A stretch of DNA of 64,000 bases from Escherichia coli. Its GTDB lineage: Bacteria; Pseudomonadota; Gammaproteobacteria; Enterobacterales; Enterobacteriaceae. Every line of letters begins with the position of its first letter. Position 1 is the first letter of the stretch. The stretch is from NCBI RefSeq assembly GCF_030013595.1, contig NZ_CP122770.1; one strand, given 5' to 3'. This document shows positions 17,929-64,000 of the stretch, piece after piece. Under the pieces are notes generated by a model. It saw only the letters and a program-made list of their open reading frames with translations, was not told the origin of the DNA and did not search any database. The position numbers and the translations under genes are program-made.

Positions 17929-18005
17929 AAGCTGTCGCTTATGGCGGAGCGATTGTGCCGTGTATTTATACACTGCACAGGGTTGAATCTCTGGTACGGT
18001 TTCAT
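17916..18005 (-). CDS. repY: RepY leader peptide (29 aa), translationally coupled to repZ
   Basis: ATG at 18005, MKPYQRFNPVQCINTRHNRSAISDSLWQV, stop TGA at 17916-17918 overlapping the repZ 5' region, as expected for the IncI1 repY-repZ arrangement. Confidence 0.7.
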   Translation of the reverse strand: MKPYQRFNPVQCINTRHNRSAISDSLWQV

Positions 18006-18019
18006 TATACTTTACCCGT

Positions 18020-18091
18020 ATTCTGTGAGGCCCCCACTATCTTTCGTCGTTCCGCCAAGTTCGTAAGAAAGATAGTGGGGGTTTTCCTTTT
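18020..18091 (+). ncRNA. inc: Inc antisense RNA (replication-control countertranscript) with terminator hairpin
   Basis: Perfect 15-bp stem CCCCCACTATCTTTC / GAAAGATAGTGGGGG (18031-18081) with loop containing CCGCCAA (complement of the rep-mRNA rUUGGCG loop), followed by TTTTCCTTTT, on the strand opposite the rep mRNA leader. Confidence 0.55.
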
Positions 18092-18527: not shown

Positions 18528-18624
18528 GTAAATAGAATAATTCTTAGATGATAAAACCATTTGTTACACAACCCGCCAATTGTGTAACAACAGCCTCTAC
18601 AAGAGCATATTTGTTCATATGTTC

Positions 18625-18745
18625 GTCAGAACTGCGGATTGTCTGGACGAGGGTCAGACACCGTTTCGTGCATATGGACCAGCATGTTCGAACGCCACAA
18701 AGCAGAAGCATCATGCCTGGATCGCTTCGGCGCGGAGCGTTAAGT
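18625..18745 (+). repeat. Conserved leader element, copy A (hairpin plus GGCGCGGAGCGTT 3' motif)
   Basis: Roughly 120 nt alignable with the copies at 19690 and 39418; preceded by the palindrome TTGTTACACAA-N8-TTGTGTAACAA (18561-18590). Confidence 0.5.
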
Positions 18746-19081
18746 TTTGACGCTTTTTTGTATGTTTTTTAAGCTGTTAGTTGACTCGGTGCGTTATACT
18801 AAGTACCCTTTACTGGTCACAGGCAAAACTGTGATCGGGCGTAGGAACCCGCGTAGTCATCGTCGGCGCAGAAGTTAATTTCTTCATTTGGCGTCGTTTT
18901 TTGCCATACCATAAAGACAGGAACTTGTATTTCTTGTCGTCATCTATGGTAGCTCAGGCGGGGCAGGCATTAGCCTGGCCGGTTTCCGATGACGCCGGTA
19001 TTCCTACCCCCGTCTGGGCTATCACCAATGAGCGTAGGAACTCGGTGATAGCGTTTTTAGTTGTCATCGGAGACCTTTGCT

Positions 19082-19369
19082 ATGTCACCTCAACTGATAC
19101 AGAAACTCCCGGCCATCACTCTGTTGGAAGGCATGTTTCCCGAGCTATCAACAAACCAGCTTAAAGTCTGCGTTTTTTACGCAATGGGTGTTCCTTACGA
19201 CGCCATTGCTCAGAACTGTCGGCTTTCTCCCGAAACGGTACGAACCTACCTGAAGCGAAGCCTGAAGAATTTAAATCTGGAAGGATATGATGCACTTCGC
19301 TCTGCTGTGCTGATGCGAACTTTCGTTTTCATGATTAGCAATACAGCTAAAGAAAACGAAAAAATGTGA
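19082..19369 (+). CDS. traA: LuxR/GerE-type HTH transcriptional regulator (first of four genes in the traABCD position)
   Basis: 95-aa protein with C-terminal HTH pattern (..NQLKVCVFYAMGVPYDAIAQNCRLSPETVRTYLKRSLKNL..); GGAG RBS 9 nt upstream; name by synteny. Confidence 0.55.
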   Translation: MSPQLIQKLPAITLLEGMFPELSTNQLKVCVFYAMGVPYDAIAQNCRLSPETVRTYLKRSLKNLNLEGYDALRSAVLMRTFVFMISNTAKENEKM

Positions 19370-19689
19370 ACAGGTGTCCCCATTAAAGGGGACACTTTCA
19401 TGGAAATTGCATTTTGCACTTTACAGGCGATCCCAAATTGATAAACATAAACACCAAGCACAAGTTACTTTAATAAAGCAAATCACTTCAGACGGTGTCC
19501 CAGTTATTTGTATCTGGCTCATGCCCGATATATGGCGATCTTACTCTGAACTGACGTGCTGATGTTTTATTTCGCGTATCACAATACTGTGCCACTGTAT
19601 TGCTGATATTAGTGCTTAGCCGTTCTTTATCTGTGAGTTCGCCAAATCACCGATACAGAACGTACTAGAGTCTGCTGGTTATATGCCTG

Positions 19690-19806
19690 TCAGAACTGCA
19701 GTTTATCCAGATACGGGCTGGATACTGCTTCAGACATATGATTTAGCATATTCGCCTGACATCGCAAAATCGTCCATCATGGATCGGTTTTGCGCGGAGC
19801 GTTGAA
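19690..19806 (+). repeat. Conserved leader element, copy B, immediately upstream of the NusG-like gene
   Basis: Alignable with copies A and C; ends ..CATCATGGATCGGTTTTGCGCGGAGCGTTGAA directly before the GTG start at 19811. Confidence 0.5.
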
Positions 19807-19810
19807 CTTC

Positions 19811-20344
19811 GTGAATATAGAACACCTGAATAACCGGAACTGGTATCTTGCGCAATATAATACAGCCGGCAAAAACAGAGAATCTTTATTCTCATGGCTG
19901 AATGAGCAAAACGTCGTACCATGGACTCCATTAATAACAAGAAAGATAAGACGGGCAGACTCCAGGTGCTGTTACCGTGAAAGAATATTCGCTATTTTTC
20001 CAGGGTACTTTTTTATTCTGGCTAATTTTGACATTCAACCAGTATCGGCATTACGTCGCCATAGCGCCTTCATTGATTTCGTGAAGTTTGGCGGTGAAAT
20101 AAAACCCGTCAATAAAGATATTGTTGATGGATTAATGAAGATTTACCCGGACCCTGTGCTAAATCCGGGAGCCAAGGAAGAGCTGAATGCGGCTTCCAGC
20201 ATATGGCTGACAAAAGCACAATATCAGTATCTCCTCAGAATGGAAAATACTCTCCAGCCTGAGTCGAGGATATCCCTGCTCCTGGAACTGGTATCAAATG
20301 CCGAACATCACGGCTTTATGGAGCGCCTTGTAAACATCCCATAG
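19811..20344 (+). CDS. traB: NusG/RfaH-like transcription antitermination paralogue (TraB-like positive regulator)
   Basis: N-terminal NGN-like segment NWYLAQYNTAGKNRESLFSWLNEQNVVPWTPLI...RERIFAIFPGYFFILANFDI; start codon uncertain (GTG at 19811 or the TTG used by the ORF track at 19790). Confidence 0.6.
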   Translation: MNIEHLNNRNWYLAQYNTAGKNRESLFSWLNEQNVVPWTPLITRKIRRADSRCCYRERIFAIFPGYFFILANFDIQPVSALRRHSAFIDFVKFGGEIKPVNKDIVDGLMKIYPDPVLNPGAKEELNAASSIWLTKAQYQYLLRMENTLQPESRISLLLELVSNAEHHGFMERLVNIP

Positions 20345-35286: not shown

Positions 35287-36441
35287 ATGCCGTCTCCACG
35301 CATCCGTAAAATGTCCCTGTCACGCGCACTGGATAAGTACCTGAAAACAGTTTCTGTTCACAAGAAAGGGCATCAACAGGAGTTTTACCGGAGCAATGTT
35401 ATCAAGCGATATCCCATTGCCCTTCGGAATATGGACGAAATAACAACCGTTGATATTGCTACATACAGAGACGTTCGTTTAGCAGAAATCAACCCCCGAA
35501 CGGGTAAACCCATTACAGGTAATACTGTACGTCTTGAACTCGCCCTTCTGTCATCTCTGTTCAATATTGCTCGTGTTGAATGGGGAACCTGTCGTACTAA
35601 CCCGGTTGAACTGGTTCGCAAGCCGAAAGTATCCTCCGGACGAGATCGCCGGCTAACGTCTTCAGAAGAACGTCGCCTTTCTCGCTATTTCCGCGAAAAA
35701 AATCTGATGTTGTATGTCATTTTCCATCTTGCCCTTGAGACAGCCATGCGGCAGGGCGAAATACTGGCCTTACGTTGGGAGCACATTGATTTGCGCCACG
35801 GTGTGGCTCATTTACCTGAAACCAAAAACGGTCACTCACGGGATGTTCCTCTGTCCAGACGTGCCCGTAACTTTCTTCAGATGATGCCCGTTAATCTCCA
35901 CGGCAATGTTTTTGATTACACCGCATCCGGCTTTAAAAATGCCTGGAGAATAGCCACACAACGACTTCGCATCGAGGACCTGCATTTTCACGATCTACGG
36001 CATGAAGCAATAAGCCGCTTCTTCGAACTGGGTAGCCTGAATGTAATGGAGATTGCTGCAATATCAGGACATCGTTCCATGAATATGCTGAAACGGTATA
36101 CTCATCTTCGTGCATGGCAACTGGTCAGTAAACTTGATGCCCGCCGGCGGCAGACACAAAAAGTGGCAGCATGGTTTGTGCCGTATCCTGCCCATATCAC
36201 GACCATCAATGAAGAAAATGGGCAGAAAGCGCATCGTATTGAGATCGGTGATTTTGATAACCTTCACGTCACTGCCACAACGAAAGAGGAAGCAGTTCAC
36301 CGCGCCAGTGAGGTTTTGTTGCGTACACTGGCCATTGCAGCACAGAAAGGCGAACGTGTCCCATCTCCCGGAGCGTTACCTGTTAACGACCCTGACTACA
36401 TTATGATTTGCCCTCTGAACCCGGGCAGCACCCCGCTGTAA
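35287..36441 (+). CDS. rci: Rci, shufflon-specific tyrosine recombinase
   Basis: Tyrosine recombinase catalytic residues (R..HDLRHE..H..Y); start MPSPRIRK gives 384 aa; directly adjacent to the shufflon. Confidence 0.9.
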
Positions 36442-38763: not shown

Positions 38764-39348
38764 ATGATGAAACCACGTTCTTCTTATTCAAAAACAGCAT
38801 TCATTCTTTTATTTTCTGTTTTCCTGGTAGCGGCAGTGACAAAAGCAAAAAGCTCGCTTCCCGATATCACCCTGGAACAGGCAAAAGAAATTAATGCTGA
38901 TAACACCGTTATTTTCCTTTTCCGCCATGGAGAACGTTGCGACCGTTCAGATATGCCATGCTATTCGGATAAAAGCGGAATCACTATTACCGGTACAGAG
39001 AAAGCACAGCAGGAAGGTATTAAGTTCGCAACAATCTTCAGTGAATATGATATTTACTCCAGCAATGCGGTAAGAACCATACAAACTGCAAAATTCTTCT
39101 CCGGTAAAGAACCCGTCGTTATGGACAGTTTATCAGACTGCAATAATGATCTTTATAAGACGCTTGAATCAATCGCAAGAGAATCTCATAAAAGGAACAT
39201 AGTAATAATGACACATAATCATTGTTTATCATTTCTGGCCAGAGATAGGCTCGGCAAGAAATTCAAACCGGCGTACCTTGATGCCCTGATCATGCATTAC
39301 GATGGTACCCGACTCATACTTGACGGAAAATACAACAAAGAGGCATAG
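38764..39348 (+). CDS. traG: TraG, exported protein with a histidine-phosphatase-like RHGE motif
   Basis: Signal peptide then IFLFRHGERCDRSD (RHG catalytic signature of the histidine phosphatase superfamily); name by synteny. Confidence 0.6.
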   Translation: MMKPRSSYSKTAFILLFSVFLVAAVTKAKSSLPDITLEQAKEINADNTVIFLFRHGERCDRSDMPCYSDKSGITITGTEKAQQEGIKFATIFSEYDIYSSNAVRTIQTAKFFSGKEPVVMDSLSDCNNDLYKTLESIARESHKRNIVIMTHNHCLSFLARDRLGKKFKPAYLDALIMHYDGTRLILDGKYNKEA

Positions 39349-39417
39349 AGGATATTTGAATTTACATAAATTCTGATATACTCAGTAAGATACAAGAGTG
39401 TACGGGCACATGTGCCT

Positions 39418-39538
39418 GTCTGAATTGCAGGTTATCCGGACGAGGGCCGGGAACTGTTTCAGGGACAAGCGCCGGTACGTTCGATTCATAAATCGTCGAG
39501 TCATCCATCATGGATCGATTCGGCGCGGAGCGTTAAAG
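39418..39538 (+). repeat. Conserved leader element, copy C, upstream of traH
   Basis: Alignable with copies A and B; preceded by palindrome GGCACATGTGCC (about 39404-39416). Confidence 0.5.
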
Positions 39539-39742
39539 ATTACGCTCATATTCGTTTTATGTCTGACGACACATCAACCAGCCAGTATCAGGAATAATCA
39601 CCTTCAGTAAACTATGAGGCTATTTACCTGGCCACACTGGCATTTATTTCCGGTAACGCAAGTATAGCCGGAAACAAACATCATCCTGTCTGTACCGGAG
39701 CACCGGTATATCCCATTCTGATTTAACTGCTCAGGAATTATT

Positions 39743-40201
39743 ATGAACCGTATTATACCTGCGGGGTGTCTTGCCGCCCTTTTTCTGGCTGGCTGCAACT
39801 CCCCTTCTCAGCATACTCCTGTTCCGCGTAACTACGGTGCTGCCTCTGATGTGGCGGTTACCCGGCACACTCAGTACACATTATGGGACAAAGGTGTGTT
39901 TTCCGGCCAACTTCCGGTTTCAACGGGGTCTCATCTTCTGACAGCTAACAGCGATCGCCTTTCCTTTGACTGGGAAGGTGATGCAATTGAATTACTGAAC
40001 GAACTGGCCAGAGTCAGGGGGATGCAGTTTAACTACAATGGTGTCCGCCTGCCGTTACCAGTCAACCTTCACGTCCGGGATATGACGTTTTCCAATACGT
40101 TGAGACTTATTGAAGCCCAGACAGCCTGGAGAGCAACAATCCATCAATATCCGGGCTTGTTACAGGTCAGCTTCATGCAGCCGGAGAACCGGAAAAAATG
40201 A
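39743..40201 (+). CDS. traH: TraH, lipoprotein (DotD-like)
   Basis: 152-aa protein with lipobox LAGCNSP. Confidence 0.75.
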   Translation: MNRIIPAGCLAALFLAGCNSPSQHTPVPRNYGAASDVAVTRHTQYTLWDKGVFSGQLPVSTGSHLLTANSDRLSFDWEGDAIELLNELARVRGMQFNYNGVRLPLPVNLHVRDMTFSNTLRLIEAQTAWRATIHQYPGLLQVSFMQPENRKK

Positions 40202-62371: not shown

Positions 62372-62459
62372 TGTTAGATACAGACTGTCTTTTCCCGCCC
62401 AGAGCAACCAACTCTGTAGCGGAACAGTAAAAAAGCCGACCTCACCAGTCGGTTTTTTT
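62372..62459 (+). ncRNA. Candidate small RNA unit 1 (promoter to intrinsic terminator, about 88 nt)
   Basis: Sigma70-like promoter TTGACA (62337-62342), 17-nt spacer, TAGAAT (62360-62365); hairpin CAGAG-caaccaa-CTCTG; terminator GCCGAC-ctcacca-GTCGG plus T7 (62435-62459). Confidence 0.35.
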
Positions 62460-62618
62460 ACATCTGTTGTTTCTGCAAATCCGCCCCACCATGCCTGTTA
62501 TACCGGGAAGACTCATGTTCTGGTTACCGTCATCACGACAGAAGTGTCGCCAGACAGTGCTAACCTGCGGATTACAAGGGTGGTTGTTATCAAATGAACA
62601 GAACACTATTATAAGAAC

Positions 62619-62705
62619 GTTAGCTGAAAAGAGATTTCCTCCAGTCAGGGCCACCAACTCTGTAACGGAACAGTAAGAAAACCGACCTCATCAGTCGGTT
62701 TTTTT
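62619..62705 (+). ncRNA. Candidate small RNA unit 2 (paralogue of unit 1)
   Basis: Promoter TTGTTA (62584-62589), 17-nt spacer, TATTAT (62607-62612); conserved 3' block CCACCAACTCTGTAACGGAACAGTAA and terminator (62681-62705). Confidence 0.3.
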
Positions 62706-62771
62706 ACATTTATTACTTCTGAGTAACGACAAGCTGTACGTAGCAAGCTCCCTCTGGCGTGGAGGACGTCA

Positions 62772-62915
62772 GCGGGCTACTATAATGTTGTCTAGGCATT
62801 ACAGTAGAGCCCTTGGTTGATTGATAGAACAATCTCCCGGGGCTTTCACAAACGCTTTCAGCTTACAGCCTCAAGCTCCCCACCGCGATTTTGACGACTT
62901 TCGTATTTTGCAACA
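62772..62915 (+). ncRNA. Toxin-less duplicate of the pnd antisense/leader region (putative orphan Sok/PndB-like antisense RNA)
   Basis: About 85 percent identical over roughly 150 bp to 63735-63900, including the promoter-in-hairpin GGGCTACTATAATG...CATTACAGTAGAGCCC; the minus strand has only a truncated 28-codon mok-like ORF and no hok-like ORF. Confidence 0.4.
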
Positions 62916-63556: not shown

Positions 63557-63709
63557 TTAACGTTTAACTTCGTAGGCTAACGTTGCCACAAGCACTGTGT
63601 TTCCCTGCTGGAGCCGGAGTACGCAAAGCGAATCCCTCACCATCCAGACAAAACACAGAATCGTCACACAGATGACGATTAACATCATTAAAAACGTTCG
63701 CTGTGGCAT
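63557..63709 (-). CDS. pndA: PndA, Hok/Gef-family type I toxin (50 aa)
   Basis: MPQRTFLMMLIVICVTILCFVWMVRDSLCVLRLQQGNTVLVATLAYEVKR, matching the Hok family TM helix, SLC motif and LAYE C-terminus; found by manual translation (below the ORF-track cut-off). Confidence 0.9.
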   Translation of the reverse strand: MPQRTFLMMLIVICVTILCFVWMVRDSLCVLRLQQGNTVLVATLAYEVKR

Positions 63710-63767
63710 CATAGCCCCTCCATTGCCTTACGGCGGTTATCGGGCTACTATAATGTTGTCGAAGCAT
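63564..63767 (-). CDS. pndC: PndC, Mok-like overlapping reading frame needed for pndA translation
   Basis: ORF in another frame overlapping nearly all of pndA and ending 7 nt before its stop; start taken at the internal ATG (63767) within the antisense target region; start uncertain (ORF-track ATG at 63848). Confidence 0.45.
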   Translation of the reverse strand: MLRQHYSSPITAVRQWRGYDATANVFNDVNRHLCDDSVFCLDGEGFALRTPAPAGKHSACGNVSLRS

Positions 63768-63815
63768 TACAGTAGAGCCCTTGGTTGATTGATAAAAAAA
63801 TCTCCAGGGGCTTTC
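63748..63815 (+). ncRNA. pndB: PndB/Sok-like antisense RNA with promoter embedded in a hairpin
   Basis: TATAAT at 63748-63753 on the strand opposite pndCA; predicted transcript overlaps the pndC start region and ends at stem CCCTTGG...CCAGGGG followed by CTTTCT. Confidence 0.45.
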
Positions 63816-64000
63816 TGCTGTATACCGTCCACAAAACGCTTTCGGCATACAGCCTCAAGCGCCCGCAGCTATTCTAACGACTTTCGTATCTGCAACAATC
63901 CTTTTATCACACGGCTAATTCCTCTGGTTAGCTCTTATCGCCTGCAAATAAATTTTTAACCTTTCCGTTTGATTTAAATTCCAGAAATGGAGACTTTGTC

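Follow-up and report, generated by a model that had tools for sequence, protein, structure and literature searches.

A predicted leader RNA with an ops-like box, linked to traB and present in three copies on an IncI1 plasmid

The traG-traH locus and three copies of the leader

The window, i.e., the whole stretch of 64,000 nucleotides that was analyzed, contains the following genes adjacent to the leader element described here.

19082-19369, plus strand: traA, encoding a small LuxR/sigma-70 region-4-type helix-turn-helix protein (profile matches)
19811-20344, plus strand: traB, encoding an RfaH-like NusG paralog (translation; profile matches)
38764-39348, plus strand: traG, encoding a histidine phosphatase family protein (open reading frame [ORF] list and NC_002122.1 annotation; traG of R64/pESBL)
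39743-40201, plus strand: traH, encoding a DotD-type lipoprotein, the first gene of the type IV secretion system (T4SS) block required for transfer (ORF list, NC_002122.1 annotation, PMC4288162)

As judged by its sequence, the window is an IncI1 plasmid: 1 kb around the leader copy located between traG and traH (copy C) showed 100% identity with ColIb-P9 (NC_002122.1), an IncI1 plasmid, and with many further plasmids of this type from E. coli, Salmonella, and Shigella, and an Rfam search of the window located the IncI1 repZ pseudoknot at 17941-18089. IncI1 plasmids and their relatives in the I complex rank among the major carriers of extended-spectrum β-lactamase (ESBL) genes and other resistance determinants.

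That the transfer of these plasmids requires TraB has been known since 1993; Kim et al. 1993 reportedly described the traABCD genes of R64, including S1 mapping of the traA promoter, and may contain an early mention of repeated sequences. In the papers searched, TraB and TraC appear as positive regulators that are essential, TraA activates traB, and superspreader mutations are concentrated in the Hft region, upstream of traA (PMC4288162, PMC5801416, PMC5013300, PMC10286972); these papers contain no definition of a TraB target and no mention of a repeated leader. Both transfer and the transcription of pil depend on TraB (PMC5013300, PMC5801416), and the expression of a traB::lacZ fusion rises on overexpression of TraA (PMC5801416). 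Residues 10 to 107 of TraB correspond to the Pfam NusG N-terminal domain, and residues 11 to 167, nearly the full length, matched the NCBIfam RfaH model with an E value of 4.7e-11, a match that lies below the family cutoff. An RfaH/ops-type element is served by a cognate specialised NusG paralog, and TraB, going by these profile matches and by its role in pil transcription and transfer, is such a protein.

A covariance model (R1), built from ten homologs in an alignment that included copy C itself, returned exactly three strong matches in the window, all with E values of <0.01; the fourth-ranked match reached only 18.6 bits. The leader element is ~130 nt in length, and its copies are located as follows.

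18615-18744, plus strand: leader copy A, before traA (R1, 120.7 bits; 3' box at 18730-18741)
19679-19806, plus strand: leader copy B, abutting traB (R1, 127 bits; 3' box at 19792-19803, 7 nt before the traB GTG)
39409-39537, plus strand: leader copy C, between traG and traH (R1, 114.4 bits; E of ~1e-26)

A repeat search followed by alignment recovered three related stretches in the window, and the pairwise identity of copies A, B, and C was 67 to 70%. Within the window, exact matches to the 12-mer GCGCGGAGCGTT were restricted to positions 18730, 19792, and 39523. The original prediction that a third copy lies between traG and traH was thus borne out, both by the R1 match at 39409-39537 (114 bits) and by the shared 12-mer. 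The ORFs at 39398-39610 and 18548-18772 were rejected as coding sequences: no open frame is common to the copies, copy B contains stops in all three frames, and the indels between copies are not multiples of three.

Structure and distribution of the leader

From ten sequences aligned with MAFFT, RNAalifold derived four predicted helices, namely, an outer P0 of 9 bp, a P1 of 4 bp, a P4 of 5 bp around a small hairpin (P5), and a mini-hairpin in the box. The variable hairpin P2 was added by inspection. P0 and P1 are separated by the conserved loop UCWGAAYU. Read against the alignments, copy C comprises the following elements.

39410-39418 with 39460-39468, plus strand: P0
39419-39426, plus strand: conserved internal loop TCTGAATT
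39427-39430 with 39454-39457, plus strand: P1
39435-39451, plus strand: P2 hairpin
39480-39483, plus strand: conserved TTCG
39498-39502 with 39517-39521, plus strand: P4
39504-39514, plus strand: P5 hairpin
39512-39516, plus strand: invariant GGATC
39523-39534, plus strand: 3' box GCGCGGAGCGTT, exact in the three copies, a candidate ops-like recruitment and pause site

Covariation was assessed on 27 model matches representing 24 distinct sequences from about ten plasmid lineages. Standard pairs occupied 85.7% of the cells, in comparison to 74.3% after column shuffling and 31 to 44% when the partners were slid by 1 to 3 columns, and double changes were observed in 95 cells versus 33 expected for the 24 distinct sequences, all of these pairing figures being somewhat inflated by the fitting of the alignment to the model; RNAalifold and MAFFT found P0, P1, P4, and the box hairpin independently. 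Changes on both sides (compensatory) occurred in 16 of the 29 pairs. The arms of P0, for example, read AUGAAGGCG/CGCCUUCAU in Enterobacter, AUGCCGCUG/CAGCGUUAU in Yersinia, and AUAUGCCUG/CAGACAUAU in IncI1 copy B. G-U pairs were frequent (AU 8, GU 7, and GC 6 in columns 22/67; UA 11 and UG 10 in columns 115/139), indicating that the structure points to an RNA of the sense strand. Since the nested helices covary over 24 distinct sequences, the element is best described as a structured sense-strand leader, and the compensatory substitutions assign it, at the sequence level, to a conserved class of structured cis-regulatory RNA. The internal-loop GAA, the UUCG, the GGAUC, and the box core GCG(R)RAGC are unpaired and invariant or nearly so. 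A candidate helix P3 (GTATTC/GAATAC, between UUCG and P4) was dropped, being paired in 62.5% of the cells versus 63.3% in shuffles. Rfam 15, including JUMPstart (RF01707), gave no match to the leader in the window at the gathering threshold, and a permissive Rfam search of 39300-39700 returned only chance-level matches with E values up to 5.

A tblastn search of 72,556 plasmids revealed TraB relatives with ~64% identity in IncB/O/K/Z-type plasmids and with ~52 to 55% identity in plasmids of Yersinia, Enterobacter, and Salmonella; Pectobacterium and other genera were added by a DNA match and by later searches for the element. In each lineage examined, the element was located directly upstream of traB, ending 0 to 22 nt before the start codon. 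These lineages comprise IncK2/Z, Yersinia pYR4, Enterobacter, Citrobacter, Leclercia, Lelliottia, Pectobacterium, Salmonella, Apirhabdus/Hafnia, Serratia, and Edwardsiella. Outside the IncI1 clade, the element was present in a single copy, at traB: model searches of the whole transfer regions of five such plasmids detected no second copy and none near traH, and BLAST of the IncK2/Z copy against 546 IncB/O/K/Z-type records placed it once per plasmid, four extra places excepted. A pattern scan of 100,044 genomes, one for each bacterial species, retrieved four real loci, in Citrobacter werkmanii, an Enterobacteriaceae metagenome-assembled genome, Escherichia sp., and Yersinia ruckeri; five other matches lacked the box and were attributed to chance. 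On these surveys, the element appears to be confined to plasmids of Enterobacterales.

The divergent IncI1-type plasmid pAVS0968-C carries a copy C that is 94% identical to that of the window, although its flanks have diverged and traG is missing. This plasmid keeps all three copies, one each upstream of traA and traB and the third ahead of a small ORF plus traH, indicating that the triplication is a feature of the IncI1 clade.

The 3' box and the sequences flanking the leader

The box begins 1 to 2 nt and ends 12 to 13 nt after P4. It may form a GC-GGA-GC mini-hairpin, the GC-GRA-GC form of which is conserved, and the core GCG(R)RAGC is kept in every lineage that was aligned. In comparison to ops (GGCGGTAGCGTG), the IncI1 box matches at 7 of 12 positions ungapped and at 10 of 12 if a 1-nt insertion is allowed (GGCG-C-GGAGCGT-T), and the pYR4 variant GGCGAGAGCATG matches at 9 of 12 ungapped, all counted by eye. 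The box departs from the 12-nt ops consensus GGCGGTAGnnTG (non-template strand), and a sequence search of the window did not detect canonical ops. The likeness to ops is modest and could be due to chance, at a rate estimated at roughly 1e-2. The residues of RfaH that contact ops are not conserved in TraB, as judged by comparison with an RfaH sequence. When the TraB residues at these positions were compared to the box variants, nearly all were invariant or nearly so, and the one that varied did not clearly track the box. In the full-text literature search, the box sequence was found only within a cloning primer.

The distance between the GGAG of the box and the traB start varies among lineages, from 1 to 22 nt, indicating that ribosome binding alone does not explain the box. 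In several lineages, the only Shine-Dalgarno-like sequence before traB overlaps the box. In each of the three IncI1 copies, a segment further downstream is able to pair with the GGAG, and the resulting hairpin takes in the GUG start in copy B. Terminator-like hairpins follow the box in the other two copies.

18734-18756, plus strand: terminator-like hairpin downstream of copy A, with a T-run behind it (scan; 9-bp stem, -9.6 kcal/mol, z of -1.3)
39528-39547, plus strand: terminator-like hairpin after copy C, GAGCGT-N8-ACGCTC, with the 5' arm inside the box and the tail ATATTCGTTTT as a weak U-tract

In the hairpin after copy C, the stem measures 6 bp and the T-run is interrupted, and the fold (-9.3 kcal/mol, z of -0.5) is not significant alone. 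Neither of the two hairpins is more stable than shuffles, and no post-box terminator-like hairpin was found in copy B or in any of the single-copy lineages.

Upstream of the leader, alignment of the 75 nt before each copy revealed a common layout, consisting of an inverted repeat, ACAAGAG, a short variable stretch, and then P0. The inverted repeat is centred about 38 to 44 nt before P0, or about 52 nt in the Citrobacter/Salmonella type. The corresponding features of the window are as follows.

18561-18590, no strand: inverted repeat upstream of copy A, TTGTTACACAA-N8-TTGTGTAACAA, with 11-bp arms and centre CCCGCCAA (fold -11.7 kcal/mol, z of -4.7)
19621-19662, no strand: imperfect inverted repeat upstream of copy B, with centre GTTCGCCAAA (fold -14.1 kcal/mol, z of -2.9)
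39358-39373, no strand: AT-rich inverted repeat upstream of copy C, GAATTTA-CA-TAAATTC, the positional counterpart of the copy A repeat
39391-39398, plus strand: conserved motif TACAAGAG between the upstream repeat and P0, common to copies A, B (TACTAGAG), and C and to the IncK2/Z and Enterobacter-type traB copies
39405-39416, no strand: perfect 12-bp palindrome GGCACATGTGCC, overlapping P0

The palindrome GGCACATGTGCC, which the original prediction had set before copy C as a regulatory site, is indeed present and perfect, although it is not located before the element: CATGTGCC, its 3' half, supplies the 5' strand of P0 and can be aligned with copies A and B. Perfect 12-bp palindromes occur in the window at the level of chance (16, in comparison to 16.3 ± 4.3 in composition-preserving shuffles). 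The outer pair of GGCACATGTGCC is lost in pAVS0968-C, which reads AGCACATGTGCC, and the palindrome has no counterpart in copies A and B or in other lineages. As RNA, it could fold as ACGGGCA-CAUG-UGCCUGU (-8.6 kcal/mol, z of -3.2), in competition with P0. The strong palindrome announced ahead of copy A fared differently, TTGTTACACAA-N8-TTGTGTAACAA being non-random: perfect repeats with 11-bp arms and spacers of 0 to 20 nt are expected at ~0.29 per window and gave 13 overlapping matches at about six loci. The repeat before copy C is centred 43.5 nt from the start of the model, versus 39.5 nt for copy A. It lacks the CCGCC centre, a longer imperfect version of it folds at -9.6 kcal/mol (z of -3.0), and one base of an arm is changed in pAVS0968-C. 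The general proposal that each copy pairs a palindromic operator with a leader was not sustained for copy C, where GGCACATGTGCC is at chance level, inside the element, and not conserved.

The arms of the upstream repeats are unrelated among copies A, B, and C and differ in each lineage.

IncI1 copy A: TTGTTACACAA
IncI1 copy B: GTGA / CGTTCT...
Enterobacter: CCTTAAGTA
IncK2/Z: CGGTTTT
Edwardsiella: GTCCTCAACT
Apirhabdus: AGAACAT

The centre of most repeats is an asymmetric CCGCC, or CCGGCC in some lineages, and two IncK2/Z plasmids that are 96% identical differ by a compensatory change of the arms (CGG/CCG to CAG/CTG). By these features, the copy A repeat is the IncI1 member of a conserved class in which the arms vary around a CCGCC centre. 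Unrelated arms combined with a shared asymmetric centre fit a hairpin with a conserved loop better than the operator of one dimeric regulator. On average, the upstream repeats fold better than shuffles (mean z of -2.1). Folding energies showed no strand preference among the upstream repeats, the plus strand being lower in 11 of 20 (mean z of -2.1 versus -1.7); G-T pairs counted by eye favored the plus strand, a biased count since the stem finder admitted G-T pairs only. Pairing of the CCGCC loop with the 3' box, judged by eye, was good in the Salmonella/Citrobacter type (CUCCGC:GCGGAG) and absent with the CCGGCC loop, and was rejected as a general feature.

A candidate promoter, read from the sequence, also lies before copy C.

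39320-39349, plus strand: candidate promoter TTGACG-18 nt-CATAGA (TTGACG at 39320-39325), overlapping the last codons of traG

A sigma-70 consensus scan near copy C passed no site, TTGACG-CATAGA included, and the promoter proposals thus have the standing of inference only. Downstream of traF, pAVS0968-C has a strong terminator-like hairpin, CCCCCGG-N-CCCGGGGG, with a T-run, and then the copy C module; homology to the window resumes about 90 nt past this hairpin, exactly at TTGACG. The hexamers TTGAAT (39356-39361) and TATACT (39377-39382) are conserved between the two plasmids, with a variable spacer between them. Transposon sequencing of pESBL revealed that traE, traF, and traG are dispensable and that traH and later genes are required for transfer (PMC4288162). 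The positions of the leader before traB-traC-pil and before the traH block fit the heads of long operons. An internal transcription unit starting before traH, with a promoter of its own, is plausible from these arrangements.

Possible roles of the leader and comparison with known systems

We tentatively favor the reading that copy C is an ops-like TraB loading site heading a TraB-dependent unit, while regarding it as somewhat short of an even chance. Under this proposal, three paralogous cis-acting leader modules would mark the heads of TraB-dependent units of IncI1 plasmids, namely, the traA unit, the traB-traC-pil unit, and the T4SS genes from traH. Each module would be composed, from 5' to 3', of the upstream hairpin or inverted repeat, ACAAGAG, the P0-P1-P2 domain with UCWGAAYU, P4-P5 with GGAUC, and the box GCGCGGAGCGUU. 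RNA polymerase would pause at the box, aided by the P4/P5 hairpin just upstream, and TraB would load there on the paused polymerase. The TraB-modified polymerase would then pass the weak terminator-like hairpins after copies A and C, as well as later termination signals, and the long transfer operons would be expressed full-length. In plasmids with one long operon running from traB into the tra genes, a single site at traB would be enough; in the IncI1 clade, the distal T4SS block apparently forms a separate unit and would need its own copy. What was observed is that the leader occurs three times, that its structure is conserved, that it is linked exclusively to traB, and that TraB is RfaH-like; we infer the transcription starts, the pausing, the binding of TraB, and the antitermination. 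Hairpin-dependent pauses are well established, and a box located 1 to 2 through 12 to 13 nt after P4 would suit, by analogy, a hairpin-assisted pause with the box exposed in the bubble. The ~110 nt of conserved structure exceeds what a DNA ops site needs and may therefore be where the actual function resides, for instance in binding a protein or ligand or in controlling translation.

The structured RNA might itself regulate, as a protein-, ligand-, or temperature-sensing leader of a riboswitch-like or thermosensor-like kind or as a site for TraC or another RNA-binding protein, a reading that we consider unlikely. Such a leader would act by attenuation in copies A and C and by way of translation initiation where copy B is concerned, and TraB would not take part directly. 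It would be in keeping with the strong covariation and the highly conserved unpaired UCWGAAYU, UUCG, and GGAUC, with the downstream pairing of the box GGAG in all three copies (GUG start included in copy B), and with the response of conjugation of the IncI-type plasmid pESI to temperature, bile, and oxygen (PMC5013300). However, the leader matched no Rfam family, the alignment contained no covarying alternative-pairing switch (P3, 62.5% versus 63.3% in shuffles), the expression platforms vary among copies and lineages whereas the box sequence is conserved, and the exclusive linkage to traB would be left unexplained. Copies A and C could instead be small-RNA genes or decoys, the short transcripts of which would end at the post-box hairpin, mimic the traB 5' untranslated region (5'UTR), and titrate or deliver a repressor protein or an antisense RNA that targets the traB leader. 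Terminator-like hairpins do follow these two copies, whereas copy B runs into traB, structure and box are kept despite 67 to 70% identity, and an involvement of Hfq-dependent small RNA has been hinted at for pESBL (PMC5801416). Yet the terminators are weak, with an interrupted U-tract in copy C, copy C occupies the very position at which traH needs a promoter and leader, a complementary antisense partner was not detected, and single-copy plasmids work without a decoy, making this explanation very improbable in our estimation.

We grant equally little likelihood to the palindromes being operator or activator sites for TraA, TraC, or TraB, with the element as the common leader of co-regulated promoters. 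TraA activates traB through upstream DNA (PMC5801416), the copy A repeat is non-random, and each copy has an inverted repeat ~38 to 44 nt before the first helix, a spacing that an activator site could have if transcription starts near P0; the lack of strand preference in folding energies (plus strand lower in 11 of 20) is likewise compatible with a double-stranded site. A LuxR-type operator would be recognized by shared dyad half-sites, but the copies have only the asymmetric CCGCC centre in common, and this centre is the conserved part of the repeat. The arms are unrelated among copies A, B, and C, which reside in one plasmid with one TraA, and change in a compensatory manner between 96%-identical IncK2/Z plasmids; GGCACATGTGCC is at chance level, within the RNA structure, and not conserved. 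IncK2/Z plasmids have the upstream repeat but no gene annotated between repA and traB in the PLSDB table, which is incomplete. Returning to TraB loading, an extension that we regard as quite a long shot combines this with sensing: the ~130-nt core and the upstream hairpin would form a new aptamer-like class of sensor or receptor RNA that gates the loading of TraB, the internal loop and the GGAUC junction binding a small molecule or TraC, and the three copies would constitute a positive-feedback switch. If so, TraB would read through into the C4-like RNA/traA unit, TraA would activate traB, and TraB would load at traH, and this switch would decide which cells become transfer-competent in the case of IncI1 resistance plasmids. 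The candidate C4-like RNA, of ~88 nt, would span 18942-19029, and its segment 18981-18993 may pair with 19063-19075 at the ribosome-binding site of traA.

The leader and its ops-like box, present wherever traB is, provide a precise candidate for the target of TraB, and the mechanism of this regulator becomes directly testable through them. Triplication at the heads of the traA, traB, and traH units in IncI1 would account for the copy located deep in the transfer cluster. The analysis also sets a real feature, the leader with its class of upstream hairpins, apart from a chance one, the GGCACATGTGCC palindrome.

The closest parallels are found among the leaders served by NusG paralogs. As in the ops/JUMPstart leaders of RfaH operons, a short conserved box lies within a larger conserved leader, the operons are long and encode machinery for the cell surface or for transfer, an RfaH-like NusG paralog acts as regulator, and the box has the layout GGCG-loop-AGCGT with a possible mini-hairpin of 2 to 4 bp. 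Unlike ops, the IncI1 box matches at 7 of 12 positions ungapped, below the ops consensus, and the leader has no Rfam JUMPstart match; TraB is plasmid encoded and lacks the ops-contact residues of RfaH, ~110 nt of covarying RNA precede the IncI box, and one copy abuts the start codon of the regulator itself. The closest precedent for the proposed mechanism is the IncX NusG paralog PrfaH (ActX), the binding site of which is an ops-like hairpin of the non-template strand within the 5'UTR of the gene encoding it (PMC11880322). That system is similar in that a plasmid-encoded NusG paralog is essential for conjugation and has its target, predicted to be a stem-loop of the non-template strand, in its own 5'UTR at the head of the T4SS operon (PMC11880322). 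The targets are unrelated in sequence, the names of the IncX mutants (C2, G3, G4, G5, G6, T7, C8, A9, T10, C11, C12, G13, A14, and G15) spelling ...CGGGGTCATCCGAG (PMC11880322). TraB is only ~33% identical to the IncX proteins, over about half its length, and IncI1 has three copies at three units. No large structured RNA has been reported for IncX. The leader hairpin of LoaP, put, and EAR are structured leader RNAs that head long operons and are associated with terminator read-through (compare PMC12691694), and LoaP is, like TraB, a NusG paralog; they have no sequence or Rfam relationship with the TraB element, which occurs in plasmids of Gram-negative bacteria. Lux-box operators resemble the upstream repeats in being inverted repeats ~40 nt upstream of the leader, in a system in which the LuxR/sigma region-4-type TraA activates traB, but here the half-sites differ between co-resident copies, the CCGCC centre is asymmetric, and the arms covary as in a hairpin. 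Set against these systems, the element is, on comparative grounds, an undescribed conserved leader RNA with an ops-like box that is specific to TraB-type NusG paralogs.

Conserved motifs of the leader

The pentanucleotide GGATC, which includes a Dam site (GATC), is located at the junction between helices P5 and P4 of the 3' domain of the leader. Alignment revealed that it is invariant in all 24 distinct leader copies (24/24), and it is present at all related loci in addition to the following positions in the window:
18719-18723, GGATC of copy A
19781-19785, GGATC of copy B
39512-39516, GGATC of copy C
This invariance may reflect either a constraint acting on the RNA or Dam methylation.

The end of rci, some 215 nt 5' of traE, carries a sequence (TCCCGGAGCGTT, 36366-36377, + strand) that differs by 2 mismatches from the 3' box, the 12-mer that ends each leader copy. 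This near-match is probably due to chance, since the window contains 9 matches to the 3' box with up to 2 mismatches versus 3.9 expected, three of the nine being the true copies.

The traF-traH interval in related plasmids

The traG gene is missing both in the divergent IncI1-type plasmid pAVS0968-C and in IncK2/Z. In pAVS0968-C (L016 1317-1500), traF is followed by a strong terminator-like hairpin, and an additional 87-aa open reading frame separates copy C from traH. In IncK2/Z, traF and traH are separated by only 103 bp (L002 7963-8065); this interval lacks the leader and carries a CCCCGGG/CCCGGGG hairpin.

Antisense RNA matches in a tandemly repeated region

Two matches to the sok antitoxin RNA and two to an AgrB-type antisense RNA were found in a tandemly repeated region (repeat family D1, three copies of 107 nt):
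62374-62461, 62620-62707, 62739-62880 and 63707-63864, sok and AgrB-type RNA matches
The location of these matches in tandem repeats suggests duplicated hok/sok-type modules.

TraA-type genes and a C4-type RNA upstream of traA

The lineages of Enterobacter, Citrobacter, Lelliottia and Leclercia (L018 to L024) carry a small TraA-type gene directly 5' of the leader and traB. Its product belongs to the LuxR/sigma-70 region-4 helix-turn-helix class and is labeled by the NCBI pipeline sometimes as a LuxR-type regulator and sometimes as a "sigma-70 family RNA polymerase sigma factor."

In the window, a C4-type antisense RNA is located between copy A and traA, within the equivalent of the Hft superspreader locus of plasmid pESBL:
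about 18790-19059, equivalent of the pESBL Hft locus
18942-19029, + strand, C4-type antisense RNA (Rfam RF01695, 77.5 bits)
The loop of hairpin 2 of this RNA (GGUUUCCGAUGAC, 18981-18993) can form 12 Watson-Crick pairs and 1 G-U pair with GUCAUCGGAGACC (19063-19075), a predicted target that covers the Shine-Dalgarno sequence of traA. Another segment of the RNA, UUCCUAC, is complementary to GUAGGAA at 19034-19040. No statement of such two-site pairing at traA was found in the literature searched. The pairing predicted from the sequence would account for the roughly 50-fold derepression of traA that Hft insertions cause. The two-site logic of the C4-type RNA and its predicted targets is the same as that of c4/icd-ant of phage P1.
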